A DNA stretch of 16,211 bases, taken from an uncultured Chloroflexia bacterium (GTDB taxonomy: Bacteria > Chloroflexota > Dehalococcoidia > DSTF01 > JALHUB01). This document shows positions 1-12,951 of this stretch, piece after piece. Made by a program: the position numbers and the translations under genes. Numbering within the stretch: position 1 is the first letter of the stretch; every line of letters begins with the position of its first letter. The notes beneath the pieces are model-generated. The model made no database searches. It worked only from the letters and a program-made list of their open reading frames with translations, and was not told the DNA's origin. The stretch spans positions 1-16,211 of the forward strand of contig CAVSBT010000024.1 of the NCBI GenBank assembly GCA_963726245.1. Reading direction: 5' to 3'.

Positions 1-263
1 ACCCGCTCTTCATCACGTCTTCCAAGTAGTCGATCTCCGCCCCCTTCCAGGAGTGGCGCGCTCTCGGGGTCCACGAGGAGCTTCACGCCGCGTTCCTCGA
101 GGACCACGTCGCCGTCCTCCTCCGTCTGGGCCAGGGCCATGCCGTACTGGTAGCCGGAGCAACCACCGCCCACTACAAAGACCCGCAGAGCGCCCTGAGC
201 CAGCCCCTTCTCTTCGAGGAGGCCCACGAGCTGCTCCGCAGCCTTCTCGCTTATGCTCAACAT
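1..263 (-). CDS. HesB/IscA/ErpA family (A-type) Fe-S cluster carrier protein, 3' end runs off the window; one apparent indel in the homopolymer at ~40-44
   Basis: Not in the ORF track. Manual translation from ATG 263: MLSISEKAAEQLVGLLEEKGLAQGALRVFVVGGGCSGYQYGMALAQTEEDGDVVLEERGVKLLVDPESAPLLEG, then after removing one G, AEIDYLEDVMKSG. LRVxVxGGGCSG.QY and GAEIDY are A-type carrier motifs. RBS GAGGAGG at 274-280 (-). Confidence 0.9.
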   Translation of the reverse strand, partial: MLSISEKAAEQLVGLLEEKGLAQGALRVFVVGGGCSGYQYGMALAQTEEDGDVVLEERGVKLLVDPESAPLLEGGGDRLLGRRDEER

Positions 264-341
264 CTCGCCCGTTCCTCCTCCTGGCGCTCCGGCGGCCCGT
301 CGCGGCTTCGAAAACGTTTGGCTTTTAGGAATTCAACACTT

Positions 342-371
342 ATTATAACTGCCTTACGCCGGCCGTGTCCA
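342..371 (-). promoter_or_regulatory. Putative sigma70-type promoter for the Fe-S carrier gene
   Basis: Minus strand TGGACA (371-366), N18, TATAAT (347-342), in an AT-rich patch of a GC-rich genome. Confidence 0.55.
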
Positions 372-461
372 ACAACCGAGGGAGATGAAGCTCAAGACTT
401 TCGGTAACAGCCCGGTTAGCCGCTTTGGAGAAGACAGGGCGATGATCGGTCGCCGAGCGCC

Positions 462-491
462 TTGCACGCCCCGGCGGCCGCCCTCTATAAT
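462..491 (+). promoter_or_regulatory. Putative sigma70-type promoter for the structured RNA / zinc-ribbon operon
   Basis: TTGCAC (462-467), N18, TATAAT (486-491). Predicted start ~498 coincides with the 5' end of a long stem. Confidence 0.6.
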
Positions 492-497
492 CCGCCC

Positions 498-654
498 AGG
501 GTCGGGGGGCGCACGCCCCAAGGCCTCTGGGCCGCGGCCCGATGCACGTGGGCGACCGAATCTTCCCCTGCCCGGTCTCTCCTTTCGCTTCGGGTTCCAA
601 CGGTTCCGGTCCCTCGTTGTTCGACTCCGGGTTGGTGAATCTGCGCCCGGCCTG
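498..654 (+). ncRNA. Candidate rod-shaped structured RNA (6S RNA-like, or structured 5' leader)
   Basis: By-eye pairing: 498-513 with 642-653 (bulged), 546-562 with 602-617, 571-575 with 590-594. Starts right after a promoter. No covariance model run. Confidence 0.35.
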
Positions 655-684
655 AGTGCCCGCGCTTGTCCCATTCACAAGAGT

Positions 685-1386
685 ATGACCACAGTGGCCG
701 ACCTCTACCTCCTCCAGGAGATGGACCTCGAAATCCAGGCGAAGCAGACCGCCCTGGAGGACGTGGAGGCGCGCCTGGGCGAGAGCGAGGAGCTGGAGGA
801 AGCGCGCCAGGAGGTGGAGGAGCAGCGCCGCCGCCTTCGCGAAGCGCAGAAGAAGCAACGTGAGGCGGAGTGGGCGGTGGAGGAGGTGCGCACGAAGATT
901 CAGCCCGTGGAGGCGAAGCTGTACGGCGGCACCGTCAAGATTCCCAAGGAGCTGGTTGGCCTCCAGCAGGACGTCGACGGCCTCAAGGCCCGCCAGCGCG
1001 AGATGGAGGACCGCGCGCTGGAGGCCATGTCGGCGGCGGAGGAGGTGGAAAGAGCGCTGGCGGACGCAGAGAAGCGTCGCGTGGAGCTGGAGGCTCAGTG
1101 GCAGGCGGAGCAGGAGAGCCTGCGCCGGCAGCGGGACGCTCTCCAGCTCGAGATTCAGGAGGTGGAGGAGAGCCGATCGGAGCAGGGGTCTGCCATCGAT
1201 GCCGAGATGATGCGGCAGTATGAATCCCTTCGGGCGCAGCACCAGGGGCGGGCCGTGGCCAAGGTCGAGCGCGGCATCTGCCAGGGCTGTCGCATCACGT
1301 TGCCCATGCACGTGCTCCAGAGGGCGCGGCGGGCCAATCACACGGTGCAGTGCACAAGCTGTGAGCGCATTCTCTACTTGAGCTGA
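685..1386 (+). CDS. C4-type zinc ribbon domain protein with long N-terminal coiled coil (DUF164 / CT398 / HP0958 / Rv2229c-like), 233 aa
   Basis: Starts MTTVADLYLLQEMDLEI; long Glu/Gln/Arg-rich coiled coil; C-terminal AVAKVERGICQGCRITLP...VQCTSCERILY with two CxxC pairs. ATG 685 preferred over 385. Confidence 0.9.
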   Translation: MTTVADLYLLQEMDLEIQAKQTALEDVEARLGESEELEEARQEVEEQRRRLREAQKKQREAEWAVEEVRTKIQPVEAKLYGGTVKIPKELVGLQQDVDGLKARQREMEDRALEAMSAAEEVERALADAEKRRVELEAQWQAEQESLRRQRDALQLEIQEVEESRSEQGSAIDAEMMRQYESLRAQHQGRAVAKVERGICQGCRITLPMHVLQRARRANHTVQCTSCERILYLS

Positions 1387-2803
1387 ATGAAAGCGGTCGG
1401 CTACTTTCGAGATGCTCCGGCGGGCAAGGGCCAGCCACTAGCGGCCCAGAGCGCCGCCTTCCTCGACTTCTGTGAGCAGCAGGGCTACGAGGCCATCGCC
1501 ACCTTCGTCGACTCCGTCGCGGCCGACGACCGGGGGCCCACGGGCTTCCGGCAACTGGCGGAGTTCCTTCGAGAGCCGGACAAGGGCTTTGTCGTCGTTG
1601 TCGTGCCCTGCCTGGAGGGCCTGGGCGAGACCCTGCGCGACGTGGCCCGCCGCTACTTCCAGATCGAGAGCCTGGGGGCCCAGGTTGCCTTCACGGACGG
1701 CACGAAGGACGCCGCCGAGCAACTCCTGGCTGCCTGGTCCAAGCACGCCGACGGCAAGCGCCTCAGCGATCGCGTCCGCGCCGCCATGCGCCGCAAGGCC
1801 GTCAGGGGCGAGGTGCTGGGACGCCCCCCCTACGGCTACAAGGTGGGCGTCCGTCGCCGCCTGGAGCTGGTGCCGGAGGAGGCCGTAGTCGTCCGCTACA
1901 TCTTCCGCCTCTACCTCCAGGAGGGCCTGGGCATACGCCTCATCGCCCGCCGTCTCAACGAGGAAGGGCTGAAGACGCGGCGAAACGGCAACTGGAGCAT
2001 GGTGACCATCCGGGACATCCTGCGCAACCGCGCCTATTTGGGCACCTACACCCGATTCGGCGTGCGCGTGCCGGGCAGCCACCCGGCCCTCGTCTCCGCC
2101 GAGGACTTCCGTCTGGTGCAAGAACGTCTCAGCGCCCGCCGCACCAGCTACTCGCCGCGAAGGGTCTCGCCCTTCCTCCTTTCCGGACTCCTGCCACTGC
2201 GGCTACTGCCAGAACAAGATGATCGGCGTCAGCCGCCGTCAGAGCTGGCGGCGCAAGGACGCGGAAGAGGAGAGCCAGGCCTCCTATCGCTACTACCAGT
2301 GCGAGTCCCGGACCAACCAGAGCGTGTGCGACTACCACACGCGGCGGGCCGAGGAGCTGGAGGAGGCCGTGCGGGAGGCGCTGAGGGACGCCGAATCAGC
2401 CGGTCCCGCCCTGCCGGAGGCCGGCGACGAGGCGGGGGTGCTCGCCGAGTGGCAGCGTCAGGCGCAGCGCCTGCATCGACGGCTGGCGCAGGTCGACAAG
2501 CGGCTGGAGGGCTACCTGGACGCGGCGGCCCGTGGGCGCCTGGCCCGCGATAAGCTGCGAAGCCTCAGCATGGCGGCCGCCACAGACCGCCTCGCCCTGG
2601 AGGAGGACCTGGAGGCGACCGAGGTCCGCGCCCGCCAGCACGCCAACGTCGCCGAGCGCCGGCGGCAGCGGGAATGGGCGCGCCAGCGCCTCTGTGACGA
2701 GTGGGACAGTCTCCTTTTTGCCGAGCGGCAAGAGCTCTTGAGGCAGGTGGTGGAGCGAATCGTGGTCACCGACGACGATATCCGCACCCTGCTCCGTCCC
2801 TGA
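1387..2803 (+). CDS. Large serine recombinase family protein (~471 aa after correcting one extra base at ~2191-2195) with a degenerate catalytic site
   Basis: Resolvase-like N-domain; recombinase domain (GRPPYGY, PEEAVVVRYIF, IARRLN, WSMVTIRDILRNRAYLG, HPALVS..DF..VQ); zinc ribbon (FLLSGL..CGYC...YRYYQC......C); coiled coil; LSR-type C-terminus (RQELLRQVVERIVV). Split between ORFs 1387..2553 and 2219..2803. Confidence 0.9.
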
Positions 2804-2810
2804 GAGCGCC

Positions 2811-3227
2811 TTGCCTGCCGCACCTCTCTACCACCTGGCTTACTCGGACGGCGCATCCAAGGGCAACCCCGGGCCCGCCGCCATCGGCGCCGTCATATTC
2901 GACCCGGAGGGCCACGAGCTCTATCGCCTTGGCAAGCGCCTGGGCACAGCCACCAACAACGAGGCCGAGTACCGTGCCGCCATCGCCGCCCTGGAGGCTG
3001 CGCTGGCCCTGGGGGCGCGCCGCCTCGAGTTGCGGATGGACTCGGAGCTCGTGGCGCGACAGATGTCCGGGCGCTACCGGGTGCGGAACCCGCGTCTGGC
3101 CCGTCTTCACGCTCGAATGCTGGCCCTTCGCCAGCGCTTCGAGGAGGTGGTCGTGCGGCACGTGCCCCGCACAGAGAACAAACTGGCCGACGCGATGGCC
3201 AACCAGGCCCTCCTGGAGGGGCCGTAG
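2811..3227 (+). CDS. rnhA: Ribonuclease HI family protein (short, archaeal/actinobacterial-like type)
   Basis: Motifs SDGASKGNPG, TNNEAEY, MDSELV, HVPRTENKLAD supply the D-E-D-D acidic tetrad. TTG start 7 nt after the recombinase stop. Confidence 0.92.
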   Translation: MPAAPLYHLAYSDGASKGNPGPAAIGAVIFDPEGHELYRLGKRLGTATNNEAEYRAAIAALEAALALGARRLELRMDSELVARQMSGRYRVRNPRLARLHARMLALRQRFEEVVVRHVPRTENKLADAMANQALLEGP

Positions 3228-3229
3228 GC

Positions 3230-3285
3230 GTAGGGGCAGGCCCCCGTGCCTGCCCTATTCGGCGACCGCAGGGGGTCGCCCCTAC
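3230..3285. repeat. GTAG-family REP doublet (REPIN-like inverted pair)
   Basis: GTAGGGGCAGGCCCCCGTGCCTGCCC (3230-3255, +) and GTAGGGGCGACCCCCTGCGGTCGCC (3285-3261, -). Each is GTAG plus a GC hairpin, arranged as an inverted pair. Confidence 0.7.
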
Positions 3286-3293
3286 TATATCGT

Positions 3294-3322
3294 TTGACTA
3301 CGCTTGGGCCCCATTGTAGACT
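3294..3322 (+). promoter_or_regulatory. sigma70-type promoter of rnpB
   Basis: TTGACT (3294-3299), N17, TAGACT (3317-3322), 7 nt before the P1 helix. Confidence 0.8.
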
Positions 3323-3329
3323 GAATATC

Positions 3330-3692
3330 GCCAGTAGGCCGGGTGGCCGCTCCTCCGGCTCGCCGGAGGGGAGGAAAGTCCGAGCTCCGCCGGGCAGGGT
3401 GCTGGGTAACACCCAGGAGGGGCGACCCTACGGACAGTGCCACAGAAACATACCGCCCGGGGCCGGAACATCGGCCTCGGGCAAGGGTGAAATGGTGCGG
3501 TAAGAGCGCACCAGCGGTCGGGTGACCGACCGGCTGGGCAAACCCCACCCGGAGCAAGACCAAATAGGAGGACTTGAGGTGCCCGGCCTGTCCTCGGGTT
3601 GGTCGCTAGAGGCGGTGGGTAACCGCCGTCCCAGACAGATGGCCACCATCCGCCTTGTGCGGATACAGAACTCGGCTTACAGGCCTACTGGC
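3330..3692 (+). ncRNA. rnpB: RNase P RNA, bacterial type A
   Basis: P1 GCCAGTAGGCC (3330-3340) pairs with GGCCTACTGGC (3682-3692). Universal motifs GAGGAAAGTCC, AGTGCCACAGAAA, GGTAAGAGC, GGCAAACCCC, ACAGAACTCGGCTTA. P13/14-, P18- and P19-like hairpins present. Confidence 0.98.
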
Positions 3693-3702
3693 ATTGCAGT
3701 TT

Positions 3703-3741
3703 GAGCCTTTCCGCCCCATAGGCGGGGGCTCTCTCTCTTTC
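3703..3741 (+). terminator. Intrinsic terminator after rnpB
   Basis: GAGCCTTTCCGCC-loop-GGCGGGGGCTC hairpin followed by TCTCTCTTT. Confidence 0.65.
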
Positions 3742-3806
3742 TAGTTTCCTATCGGTCCGTACCGGTCCCATCGGTTGGCAGAAGCTATCGGCAAAGGAGG
3801 GCTCTG

Positions 3807-4160
3807 ATGGTGAAACGCTGGTTATGGCTTCCTGGACTCGTGGCGGCGATCGTCCTTCTGGCGGCAGTCGTCGCGCCGCGCGTGGCGAGCGCGCGCACCG
3901 TGAATATGGTGGTGGGGTGCAACCCCGTGGCCCTGACTTACAACAACGGCACCGCCACCACGACGGTAGCCGACGGCGTCGCGCCGACGGGCTCTCTCGA
4001 CACCATCTGGAAGTATCTGCCGGCGGAGAGTCGCTGGCTGGGGTACCAGGCTGGTGCGCCTGTCGAGGTCAGCGACCTGCAGACCGTCCAGCGTCTGGAC
4101 GCCGTCTTCGTCTGCGTTAATGCTGTCGCTACCATAACCATGCCGGACATTGGAGGCTGA
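3807..4160 (+). CDS. Small secreted hypothetical protein (signal peptide, two Cys in the mature part)
   Basis: RBS AAGGAGG just upstream; MVKR then a hydrophobic stretch then an ASA cleavage-like motif; 117 aa. Confidence 0.8.
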   Translation: MVKRWLWLPGLVAAIVLLAAVVAPRVASARTVNMVVGCNPVALTYNNGTATTTVADGVAPTGSLDTIWKYLPAESRWLGYQAGAPVEVSDLQTVQRLDAVFVCVNAVATITMPDIGG

Positions 4161-4231
4161 TGCGGCGCAAGCAAGCCTCCCGGTGGGTAGGTAGGAGCTC
4201 GCTTCTCTATTGAAGCCCGCTCTGGTAGGGC

Positions 4232-5786
4232 ATGTCTCGTGAGCCCGCCTGGCTGAGGGACGTTGGCGAAGCGGAGGTCCTCGGCGACCTGCCTGCTTCG
4301 CTGACCGCTGTCTGCTACGACTCCCGTCGCGTCGAACCCGGCTGTCTTTTCGTGGCCGTCCCGGGGGCTACTCCACGCTCCCGCGACGGCCACGAGTTCA
4401 TCGACCAGGCGCTGGCGCAGGGCGCGGCGGCTCTCGTCGTGCAGCCGGACCATCGAGCCGCCTGGGAACGGCTGGCCGACAGCGGCCGCGTGCCGCTGGT
4501 CGTGGTCCCGGACAGCCGGCGGGCCCTGGCGTCGCTGGCGGCGGCCTTCCACGGCTGGCCGGCGCGTCGACTGCGCACGGTAGGTGTTACCGGCACCGAC
4601 GGCAAGACGACCACCGCCCATCTCGTCGCTGCCGTGCTGGAGGCGGCCGGCCGGCGCTGCGCCCTCCTCAGCAGCGCCGAGCTTCGCGCCGGCGGCCGGG
4701 CCCAGGTCAACGCCACCCACATGACGACCCTCGAGGCGCCCGAAGTGCAGGCCTTCCTGGCCGGGGCGCTGGAGGCCGGCGACCAGTGGGCCGTCGTCGA
4801 GGCGTCCTCCCATGGGCTGGCCCTTCACCGCGTCGACGCGTGCGAGTTCGACGTAGCCGTATTCACTACCCTCGGAAGCGACCACCTGGACTTCCACGGC
4901 AGCCTGGAGGAGTACCGGGCGGCCAAGGGACGCCTCTTCCTCATGCTTGACCAGGCTGTGGACAAGGGCGTGCCCAAGACGGCCGTCCTCAACGCCGACG
5001 ACCCGGCGTCGGACTACTTCCGGCGTTTGACGGCGGCGTCCGTCGTCACCTACGGCCTGGACGACGCCAACGTGGCCGCCCGCGCGGTCCGCACCGAAGG
5101 CCTGTCGACGTCCTTCGAGCTGGCAGGGGCCTTCGGCGCTGTGCCTGTGAAGACGCGACTGGCGGGGCGGTACAACGTATACAACTGCCTGGCGGCCGCC
5201 GCCGTGGGCCTCTCGCAGGGGCTATCGGCCGAGGAGGTGAAGAGGGGGCTGGAGGGCGTGTCCGGCGTGCCGGGTCGAATGGAGCTCATCGATGCCGGGC
5301 AGCCGTTCTCGGTGGTAGTGGACATCGCCTCCACGCCGCAGGCCCTGGCGAACGTTCTCGGGGTCCTGCGGGCCGCGTGCCTGCCTGCCGGACAGGCGGG
5401 TCCGGGACGGCTCTGGGCCGTCTTCGGCTGCGCCGGGGAGAGGGACCCCGGCCGGCGCGACGGCATGGGACGAGCCGCCGGGCGCCTGGCCGACTTCGTG
5501 GTGCTCACGAACGAGGACCCGCGCTCCGAAGACCCGGACGCCATCATCGAGGCCATCGCCGTCGGCCTGCGGGAGGCCGGGCGCCGGGAAGGGCGACGAC
5601 TTCGTGCGCATCCCGGACCGGCGTCAGGCCATCGCCTACGCCTTCGAGAGGGCGGGCGAGGGCGACGTGGTCCTCCTGGCCGGCAAGGGCAGCGAGCAGA
5701 CCATGGTCTTCGGCGACCAGCACCTCCCCTGGGACGAGCGGTCGGTGGCGCGGGAGCTGCTGCAGGAGCTGGGAGCCAGGCACTAG
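4232..5786 (+). CDS. murE: MurE-family UDP-MurNAc-tripeptide ligase (one extra base at ~5589-5593)
   Basis: YDSRRV..G.LFVA, DGH.FI, P-loop GVTGTDGKTTT, EASSHGL, DHLDFH, VPGRME, FGCAGERD, EDPRSE. After the shift: DRRQAIAYAF...GDVVLLAGKGSE to TAG 5786. Confidence 0.9.
5380..5400. repeat. Mini palindrome CCTGCCTG-CCGGA-CAGGCGGG inside murE
   Basis: 8-bp stem with one G-T pair. Shares both ends with the element at 9923-9960. Confidence 0.5.
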
Positions 5787-5807
5787 GAACCGGGAGGGTA
5801 TTGCCAA

Positions 5808-6282
5808 ATGCTAAGAATCACCCCATTTCTATGGTTTGATGACAATGCTGAAGAGGCAATTGATTTCTACACCTCTGTTTTCAAGAACTCAAAGATCGTG
5901 AGCATCACGCGCTACGGGGAAGCAGGGCCTGGACCGAAGGGAGCGGTGATGTCGGCGACATTTCAGCTCCAGGACCAGGAATTGATGGCGTTGAACGGTG
6001 GTCCGCAATTCAAATTCACCGAGGCCATATCGTTTTTCGTCAATTGCGAGACTCAGCAGGAAGTAGACGAGTTGTGGGAGAAGCTCTCCGAGGGCGGAGA
6101 AAAAGGCAGATGCGGCTGGCTCAAAGACAAGTTTGGTTTGTCGTGGCAAATCGTACCCGCTGCTTTAGGCGAGATGTTGAGCGACAAGGACGCTGAGAAA
6201 TCCAAGAGGGTCATGGAAGCAATGCTCCGAATGGATAAGAATTGACATTAAGACTTTAAGGCAGGCATACGAGCAAGAATGA
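5808..6282 (+). CDS. VOC family protein, PhnB / 3-demethylubiquinone-9 3-methyltransferase-like (one extra A at ~6240)
   Basis: [55 protein letters not shown]. Removing one A gives the family-typical end [16 protein letters not shown] (TGA 6280-6282). Confidence 0.92.
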
Positions 6283-11628: not shown

Positions 11629-12951
11629 GGATCATCTACGGGGCTGAGGAGGCACGGCGGACGGTGCTCCGCCGTCAGCCCATGGGCGAGACAGAGCTGC
11701 CGCCGGCCGTCCGCGAGCGCATCCGCGAGGTCTTCGGCGCTGAGCTGTCGGCCCAGGAGGTGGTGGAGCGCATCGTGGCCGACGTGCGCGCCGAGGGCGA
11801 CGCCGCCGTCCGCCGCTACAGCCGCGCCTTCGACGGGGTCGAGTACGCCTCGCTGGAGGTGCCCCGCGCCGACGTGGAGGCCGCCTACCGAGCAGGTGGA
11901 CCCGCCCCTGGTAGAGGCCCTGCGCTTCGCCGCCGACCGCATCCGCGCCTTCCACGAGGCCCAGCGCCGGCACGGCCCGTCCGACTTCTTCGAGGACGGC
12001 CTGGGGATGCAGGTCCGGCCCCTGGAGCGGGTGGGCGTCTACGTGCCGGGGACGGTCGCCGTCTATCCCTCGTCGGTGCTGATGACGGCGATACCGGCGC
12101 GGGTGGCCGGCGTCGAGCAGGTGTACATGGCGAGCCCGGCCTCGGCCGACGGCCGCGTGTCGCCGCTCAAGCTGGTGGCGGCCGACATCGCCGGCGTCGA
12201 CCGGGTGTTCCGGGCCAGCGGCGCCCAGGCCATCGCCGCCCTCGCCTACGGCACGGAGACCGTCCCGCGGGTGGACAAGGTCTGCGGCCCCGGCAACATC
12301 TTCGTCACCCTGGCCAAGAGGGTGGTCTACGGCGACGTGGGCATCGACTCCCTCTACGGGCCCACGGAGACGGTGGTGGTGGCCGACGACACGGCCGACC
12401 CCGCGTCCTGCGCCGCCGACCTCCTGGCCCAGGCCGAGCACGATGAGCTGGCGACGCCGCTTCTCCTGACGCCGTCGGAGGCGCTGGCGCGGGCCGTCGC
12501 CGCGGAGGTGGAGCGGCAGCTCGAGGGCCTGGAGCGGGCCGAGATCGCCCGGTCGGCCCTGGAGGCGCGCGGCGGCATCGTGGTGACGGCGGGGCTGGAG
12601 GAGGCGCTGGAGCTGGCCAACGAGTTCGGGCCGGAGCACCTCTGCCTGCTGGTGCGCGACGCCGCCTCCTGGGCGCCGCGGGTGCGGCACGCCGGCGGCC
12701 TCTTCCTGGGCGAGACCTCGCCCGAGGCGGTGGGCGACTACACGGCCGGCCCCAGCCACGTCATGCCCGCCGGGGGCAGCGCCCGCTTCTCGTCGCCCCT
12801 GAGCGTCTTCGACTTCCTGAAGTTCACCAGCGTGGTCGACATGGACGCCGCCGCCCTGCGCCGGCTCGGGCCGCCGGCGGCGGCCATCGCCCGCGCCGAG
12901 GGGCTGACGGCCCACGCCCGCGCCATCGAGCAGCGCCTGGAGCGCGACTAG
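11625..12951 (+). CDS. hisD: Histidinol dehydrogenase (one extra base at ~11888)
   Basis: VERIVADVRAEGDAAVRRYS..FD, RPLERVGVYVPG, GAQAIAALAYGTE, GPGNIFV, GPTE, QAEHD, PEHL, GDY.AGPSHV.P, EGLTAHA. Confidence 0.95.

Follow-up and report, generated by a model that had tools for sequence, protein, structure and literature searches.

A large serine recombinase-like protein of Dehalococcoidia that has lost its catalytic motifs and is maintained at a fixed chromosomal locus

The stretch of DNA studied here (the window) is a contig of 16,211 nt from an uncultured Chloroflexia bacterium placed in the class Dehalococcoidia, and at positions 1387–2803 it carries a gene whose product resembles a large serine recombinase in its domains and lacks the residues with which such enzymes cut DNA. 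The gene is wedged between a zinc-ribbon gene and rnhA, the gene of RNase HI, and the question raised by this locus is why a recombinase deprived of its chemistry should be kept there. An earlier note, made from the sequence of the window, proposed a domesticated large serine recombinase in which catalysis was lost and the binding domains were kept, and this proposal is borne out by the catalytic motifs, the orthologues at the same locus, the gene tree, the ratios of nonsynonymous to synonymous substitution rates (dN/dS) and the modelled fold, all of which agree. The protein is probably an anciently exapted, integrase-derived DNA-binding protein of the host, in which the integrase scaffold would be maintained without cleavage.

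The state of the active site can be read against a canonical paralogue encoded in the same genome (a 507-aa frame on contig C11), in which the motifs Y-A-R-V-S-S and V-D-R-L-S-R are present. In the alignment of both proteins the R-V-S of the paralogue falls on R8-D9-A10 and its D-R-L-S-R on E77-G78-L79-G80-E81. Codon 10, at the position of the nucleophile, is GCT (1414–1416) and encodes Ala, and codons 77–81 (1615–1629) encode E-G-L-G-E at the place of D-R-L-x-R; both replacements had been called correctly in the earlier note. The RP motif, also listed there as gone, is indeed replaced in the window protein (P51-T52), but its Arg is kept in 57 and its Pro in 72 of 120 orthologues. At the other positions the orthologues show a marked drift. 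Position 10 is Ser in 45, Pro in 31, Ala in 23 and another residue in 21 of the 120, position 78 is occupied by Ala (34), Ser (31) or Gly (24), and position 81 by Gly (33), Arg (20) or Ala (18). The same is seen in a more diverse set of 99 rows, made up of 98 cluster representatives of at least 400 aa and the copy of the window genome (51 of the 149 representatives were shorter than 400 aa and were omitted): position 10 takes 17 different residues, with Ser in 12 rows, and position 8 is Arg in 45. Of the 98 representatives only two show a canonical pair of motifs (Y-A-R-V-S-T and L-D-R-F-G-R); they are the most distant of the set (E ~1e-37) and are ordinary integrases.

The equivalents of S10, R68 and R71 are therefore lost in the family, with no Ser nucleophile in R-x-S, no arginines in D-R-L-x-R and no new residue fixed at these places. 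As anticipated, orthologues that occupy this locus share the loss, and the residue at the place of the old nucleophile is free to vary. The cited passages of a study on Tn3 resolvase describe mutants of Y6, R8, S10, D36, R68 and R71 that cleave and recombine far less, and report that binding to the site was not strongly inhibited in any of them (Olorunniji and Stark 2009; PMC2794168). With the nucleophile Ser and both D-R-L-x-R arginines gone and their positions drifting, the chemistry of DNA cleavage has most likely been lost.

The rest of the protein presents a different degree of conservation. Pfam searches with the two halves of the window copy gave a weak match to Resolvase (E 2e-10 to 3e-10, residues 3–142), a match to Recombinase (E 1e-23) and, on the second frame, a match to Zn_ribbon_recom (E 2e-9) that reaches 1e-13 on the intact allele described below. 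Across 88 diverse family members, Recombinase and Zn_ribbon_recom match all 88 and Resolvase only 44 (E 1e-3). The recombinase domain is the most conserved part of the protein and is nearly invariant in the 120 orthologues, and in the zinc ribbon of the 88 members Cys271 is invariant while Cys274 and Cys305 are at least 90% conserved. A sequence search of the Protein Data Bank (PDB) matched the recombinase and zinc-ribbon domains with the A118 integrase (4kis) and the SPbeta integrase (9dxh). It returned no match for the N-terminal domain, whose relatives are found by the fold search alone.

An AlphaFold2 model built on the 88 family members (mean predicted local distance difference test score, pLDDT, of 90.8; mostly above 90 in the coiled-coil and C-terminal block) shows an N-terminal domain with strands and helices alternating in the resolvase order, followed by the recombinase domain, the zinc ribbon, a long two-helix coiled coil and a C-terminal hairpin. 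A single helix covers residues 109–139, so the shortening of helix E suggested in the earlier note is not seen; compared with the C11 paralogue, the shortening is confined to the loop that precedes this helix and the linker that follows. Among PDB entries, Foldseek matches the model best with the integrases of SPbeta, Bxb1, A118 and PhiC31 at full length (E 4e-19 to 1e-12). Taken by itself, the N-terminal domain matches the catalytic domain of the TP901-1 integrase (3bvp, with a template modelling score, TM-score, of 0.70 on the target), and its matches also include the catalytic domains of gamma-delta, Sin and Tn3. Thus the structural elements of a large serine recombinase are all found: a resolvase fold with helix E, the recombinase domain, and the zinc ribbon with its inserted coiled coil.

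Two lineages depart from this pattern. In four loci of one family (L022, L023, L024 and L029) three of the four zinc-ribbon Cys are replaced, with C-G-x-x-G and the later Cys changed to Gly or Ser; the motifs around the replaced residues stay conserved and the domain resembles a zinc-free ribbon. In a genus of family f10 (~16 genomes, locus L033) the matches begin only at query residue ~50–90, with the N-terminal domain diverged beyond recognition and the recombinase and zinc-ribbon domains still ~50% identical.

No curated family covers the protein, as all NCBIfam matches lie far below cut-off, the best being XisF (72.7 bits for a cut-off of 375), with CcrA, CcrB and CcrC also among them. The nearest clusters in the ESM Atlas are generic recombinases, mostly of Chloroflexota, and give no functional lead. 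In public records the matches, from Dehalococcoidia, bear the names 'recombinase family protein' and 'site-specific DNA recombinase', and under these names the proteins would be counted as integrases in surveys of mobile elements in Dehalococcoidia.

As regards its distribution, the gene is a conserved orthologue with essentially one copy per genome. All 41 relatives compared (one order, 5 families, 23 genera) carry one strong match (E ≤1e-87, 60–96% identity) in an open frame of ~470 aa free of internal stops, the next-best matches having E values of 8e-18 or weaker. In the class Dehalococcoidia 168 of 301 genomes match at E ≤1e-25, including 9 with a best E of 1e-29 to 1e-26 that are probably ordinary integrase paralogues and one genome (G273) that is unpublished; the fully or nearly positive families score 17/17, 17/17 and 16/17. 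A phylum-wide sample of 301 genomes gave 8 matches at E ≤1e-35, all inside Dehalococcoidia and none outside it. A library of protein clusters at 50% identity contains 176 clusters at E ≤1e-30, and the tail of ordinary recombinases amounts to 27,391 at 1e-3.

Selection and descent lead in the same direction. Nei-Gojobori estimates of dN/dS for 12 pairs range from 0.07 to 0.39 over the whole gene, with values of 0.02–0.04 in the recombinase domain of close relatives and 0.12–0.56 in the N-terminal domain, and are well below 1 in every domain. In a quick maximum-likelihood tree of 31 orthologues, with support from the Shimodaira-Hasegawa-like approximate likelihood ratio test (SH-aLRT), six of the seven taxonomic families with at least two rows form single clades (support 98–100), and the order of the window forms a clade with support 94; locus L004, which is cut by a contig end, was omitted from the alignment, the dN/dS estimates and the tree. 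The gene tree thus tracks the taxonomic families to a large extent, and both the low dN/dS and the vertical phylogeny that the earlier note had looked for are found. The same applies to its account of the immediate surroundings: the TGA of the zinc-ribbon gene (1384–1386) directly abuts the ATG at 1387, rnhA starts 7 nt past the stop of the recombinase-like gene, and the composition is host-like, with a GC content at third codon positions (GC3) of 0.877 in the intact allele, within the reach of the neighbouring genes (0.856–0.894). With 0 and 7 nt to its neighbours, a fixed synteny, one clear orthologue per genome and this host-like GC3, the gene does not have the features of an integrase of a mobile element. 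The orthologues neither keep RVS and DRLxR, nor decay in relatives, nor carry a conserved replacement Ser, the three observations that had been named as speaking against domestication. The gene is therefore kept by purifying selection, is essentially single-copy and is inherited largely vertically, and purifying selection, vertical inheritance and a fixed locus after the loss of activity are what characterises an exapted gene.

The copy on the window contig is itself broken, contrary to the earlier description of the gene as structurally intact. Its 1417 nt hold no single open frame: the first frame opens with the ATG at 1387 and is closed by a stop at 2553, giving 388 aa, and the homologous C-terminal part lies in the next frame, ending at 2803. 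The meaningful part of the first frame ends with F-L-L-S-G-L-L and the second resumes with H-C-G-Y-C-Q-N-K-M, which indicates that the recombinase domain and the zinc ribbon are separated by one extra base at about 2191–2195. The bin to which the window belongs, as contig C24, has 46 contigs (83% completeness, 6.3% contamination). The end of another contig of this bin, C6 (17526–23332), overlaps positions 1–5810 of the window with 97.8% identity and 17 indel columns, which suggests that the bin holds two strains or haplotypes of the locus and fits the 6.3% contamination. The C6 allele has no C at 2194 and shows an intact frame of 471 aa. Inside the gene the two alleles are separated by 7 substitutions, each in a third codon position, of which only one changes the protein (D27E); once base 2194 is deleted, the window encodes the C6 protein apart from this residue. 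Contigs from four other metagenome runs (four studies) have one base fewer at 2193/2194 wherever the site is covered. They also keep the Ala codon at position 10, where the only change is a synonymous T to C at 1416.

From this comparison of contigs the extra C is likely an assembly or consensus error, and the intact allele of contig C6 (locus L013) was used in place of the broken frame of the window. A programmed +1 frameshift at 2194 was discarded, since none of the other alleles has the extra base. Read-through by a four-letter code word was also set aside: no word at the break is unique in the frame, and the only four-letter word with a single hit sits 42 nt upstream of the break and garbles ~14 residues. 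Two further genes of the window show breaks of the same kind. An erpA/iscA-like gene (Pfam Fe-S_biosyn; 3–263, minus strand) changes frame near a run of five C's at 36–40, where contig C6 has four, and so carries a second 1-nt insertion private to the window contig. In hisD (Histidinol_dh; ~11748–12951, plus strand), split near 11895, profile positions 10–60 lie in one frame and 63–411 in another. That three housekeeping genes are interrupted within 16 kb speaks for consensus errors in the window contig.

In the mechanism proposed here, a large serine recombinase gene would have landed between the zinc-ribbon gene and rnhA at an early time, in an ancestor within Dehalococcoidia. Its product would still fold as a full integrase, with resolvase-fold domain, helix E, recombinase domain, zinc ribbon and coiled coil, and would most likely work as a non-cleaving, sequence-specific DNA-binding protein. 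It would probably dimerise through helix E, like its enzymatic relatives, while the near-invariant recombinase and zinc-ribbon domains would recognise a conserved chromosomal site; two such sites could possibly be paired through the coiled coil. The gene is probably co-transcribed with those of the zinc-ribbon protein and RNase HI. More tentatively, this may be the first case in bacteria of a whole large-serine-integrase scaffold kept over a long time as a non-cutting, site-specific reader, perhaps pairing a conserved chromosomal site through its coiled coil. Were this true, the scaffold could serve in the organisation or regulation of DNA, or could sit on an ancestral attB and so exclude related integrating elements.

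Several observations weigh against the protein being an exapted DNA-binding protein, or limit how far this can be taken. DNA binding is deduced from homology and from conservation of the sequence. No match was found in 133 of the 301 class genomes, with whole families negative (0/12 and 0/5), and the gene is therefore not essential to the class. The lineage with three of four zinc-ribbon Cys replaced indicates that zinc binding is not universally required. Apart from the promoter hexamers, a search, not an exhaustive one, of 12 regions upstream of the cluster gave no conserved inverted repeat or operator, and a similarly non-exhaustive search before rnpB, the gene of the RNase P RNA, at 20 loci gave promoter-like hexamers and no element resembling a binding site. 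The N-terminal domain, which holds the former active site, is under purifying selection too. The own family of the window is not a single clade in the tree, a quick search without bootstrap. Finally, the extra C may possibly be a real frameshift specific to the strain of the window instead of an assembly error.

The features that argue for a non-cleaving DNA-binding protein would in part also suit a protein that, without catalysis of its own, partners or regulates an active serine integrase, be it a subunit in the manner of CcrA/CcrB, a regulator of the directionality type acting through the coiled coil, or, against incoming integrases, a guard of attB or the dominant-negative inhibitor named in the earlier note. 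CcrA and CcrB provide an example of a second-subunit arrangement. The coiled coil and helix E, elements through which integrase subunits contact each other, are kept, and the very high conservation of the DNA-reading domains would suit the guarding of a conserved attB. Canonical paralogues are present in the genome of the window (contig C11) and in 23 of the 41 relatives, but they are only 25–38% identical to the recombinase-like protein and differ from genome to genome. The other 18 relatives yielded, at E ≤1e-3, nothing further that matches the N-terminal and recombinase domains (some of these genomes are incomplete), so there is no constant active partner and the dominant-negative idea is weakened. 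Such a role is unlikely.

The neighbourhood invites a further explanation, in which the protein would act together with the zinc-ribbon protein, RNase HI and the RNase P RNA, its substrate being RNA or an RNA-DNA hybrid instead of duplex DNA. The linkage is tight. At the order level all 11 loci have the zinc-ribbon gene directly upstream, and of the 10 loci that no contig end truncates, 9 have rnhA downstream. A set of 20 loci from across the class shows the zinc-ribbon gene as immediate neighbour 18 times and rnhA 12 times, with rnpB no more than 3 kb away at 15 loci (on the same strand at 14 of these). The abutting stop and start codons upstream could be taken in the same sense. However, in five Dehalococcoidia genomes that do not carry the recombinase-like gene the zinc-ribbon gene is next to rnpB in four and next to rnhA in two. 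The zinc-ribbon (COG1579-like) gene, rnhA and rnpB are thus linked with or without the recombinase-like gene (loci L034, L036, L037 and L038), and the cluster is older than the gene, which was inserted into it or has been lost in some lineages; the neighbourhood need not reflect a shared function. Moreover, the conserved domains are those with which integrases bind duplex DNA. A complex prediction for the recombinase-like and zinc-ribbon proteins gave a score of 0.00, which counts neither for nor against binding. Action on RNA is on these grounds improbable.

A third possibility is that the protein is still an active recombinase, with a relocated nucleophile or a different active site. Some catalytic positions are indeed kept among the 120 orthologues: residue 6 is Tyr in 111 and Phe in 9, Arg8 is present in 119, and an Asp or Glu is kept at residue 42, the equivalent of D36. 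The conservation of Arg8 holds within the order only and is lost at the class level. Among the 88 diverse members the sole residue of the N-terminal domain conserved in at least 90% is Cys29, near the C-terminal end of the first helix (18–32), and no Ser, Thr or Tyr is conserved in this domain. With the lost positions not fixed and only Cys29 conserved, there is no sign of a relocated nucleophile. Neither repeats nor att-like sites are found at the locus, which is fixed and syntenic. At the site of the old D-R-L-x-R, a deeper subfamily (for instance P0219–P0269 and loci L030 and L031) shows a recurrent P-D-[SA]-x-H-L-[AG]-x-D-L-E, the His of which is present in 44 of the 99 rows. Judged by its sequence, the motif may mark a functional site newly arisen within the old catalytic domain, and this branch of the family may have built a D-x-x-H site there. 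That the protein still recombines DNA is very doubtful.

That the gene is the decaying remnant of a prophage integrase, as the 1-nt insertion splitting the window copy could make one think, is scarcely credible and, for the family as a whole, already contradicted by the intact frames of 41 of 41 relatives and by dN/dS far below 1, while for the window copy the absence of the extra base from the sister contig and from the contigs of the four other runs, and the frameshifts of the erpA-like gene and hisD on the same contig, speak for consensus errors.

The coordinates of the gene and of its surroundings are collected in Table 1. The cluster is preceded by a putative promoter whose -10 block (TATAAT) is invariant in 12 of 12 upstream regions (the window and 11 relatives) and whose -35 block is conserved. 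Between this promoter and the zinc-ribbon gene lies a GC-rich leader of ~190 nt, conserved only in the closest relatives and without a match in Rfam. The upstream open reading frame listed for the window (385–1386) over-extends into the leader, as homology to relatives begins at 685. The product of the zinc-ribbon gene matches Pfam CT398_CC (E 9e-14) and Zn_ribbon_9 (E 3e-7), with the NCBIfam CdsZ match far below cut-off, and for rnhA the best NCBIfam matches are RNase H models, also below cut-off. The gene rnpB does not figure in the earlier note. A literature search on rnpB and COG1579 returned nothing relevant.

Table 1. Features of the recombinase-like gene and its neighbourhood in the window
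Feature	Position	Strand	Basis
Putative sigma-70-type promoter of the cluster: TTGCxCG, 17-nt spacer, CTATAATCC	467–495	+	Alignment of 12 upstream regions
Gene for CT398/CdsZ-like coiled-coil hairpin with C4 zinc ribbon (COG1579-like)	685–1386	+	Pfam, homology start
Degenerate resolvase-fold N-terminal domain, residues 1–127	1387–1767	+	Pfam, alignment, model, Foldseek
C-terminal part of helix E, linker and recombinase domain, residues 128–262	1768–2172	+	Pfam Recombinase
Zinc-ribbon domain, C-x2-C ... C-x9-C, residues 263–335	2173–2392	+	Next frame from 2195; Pfam Zn_ribbon_recom
Extra C (CTGCCAC here, CTGCAC elsewhere)	2194	+	Contig comparisons
Antiparallel coiled coil (helices 348–381 and 387–437), C-terminal helix and beta-hairpin	2393–2803	+	AlphaFold2; 31-orthologue alignment
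Stop codon TGA of the recombinase-like gene	2801–2803	+	
rnhA (RNase HI), TTG start at 2811	2811–3227	+	Pfam RVT_3 (E 3e-25), RNase_H (E 2e-11)
Promoter-like site before rnpB	3294–3322	+	Consensus scan 9/12, pattern match only
rnpB, RNase P RNA class A	3331–3695	+	Rfam RF00010, 317.6 bits, E 9.5e-104, full-length

Serine integrases have been studied almost only as enzymes and as tools for genome engineering. A large and old family of this kind would represent a natural 'binding-only' integrase, in which the apparatus for DNA recognition and synapsis is present without the chemistry, and it could reveal what the recombinase, zinc-ribbon and coiled-coil domains do alone, besides offering a naturally inactive scaffold for structural work. 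It would also add a prokaryotic dead serine recombinase to the exapted genes of mobile elements. A search of the literature, supplements not covered, found no description of a catalytically dead family of bacterial large serine recombinases.

The closest known proteins are the integrases of A118/LI, SPbeta (SprA-YokA), Bxb1 and PhiC31, with which the recombinase-like protein shares the order of the domains, the fold and a zinc ribbon with an inserted coiled coil. Unlike these phage enzymes, the family has neither the Ser nucleophile nor the equivalents of R68 and R71, these positions being unconserved, and it has no att sites, cargo or directionality factor; its gene occupies a fixed housekeeping locus and descends largely vertically. 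The paralogue on contig C11 shares the same three Pfam-type domains with ~34% identity in the N-terminal and recombinase domains; it keeps both of its catalytic motifs and is not conserved across relatives.

A serine recombinase retained for a function of the host is also found in the Hin-type invertases, XisF and SpoIVCA. These proteins still recombine DNA and keep their catalytic residues, whereas the recombinase-like family has lost them. The cited part of a review (PMC8987985) treats recruited serine recombinases as cases of Hin-type inversion and of integration or excision, all of them active, and in the review the terms 'inactivated' and 'catalytically inactive' occur 0 times. The one inactive precedent documented here, by description, is F16 of vaccinia virus, which the cited passage of another article (PMC4304020, citing Senkevich, Koonin and Moss 2011) presents as an inactivated serine recombinase kept for another role. 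F16 is a protein of a eukaryotic virus and its role is unclear; the gene described here differs from it in being bacterial and chromosomal and in encoding the complete C-terminal architecture of a large integrase.

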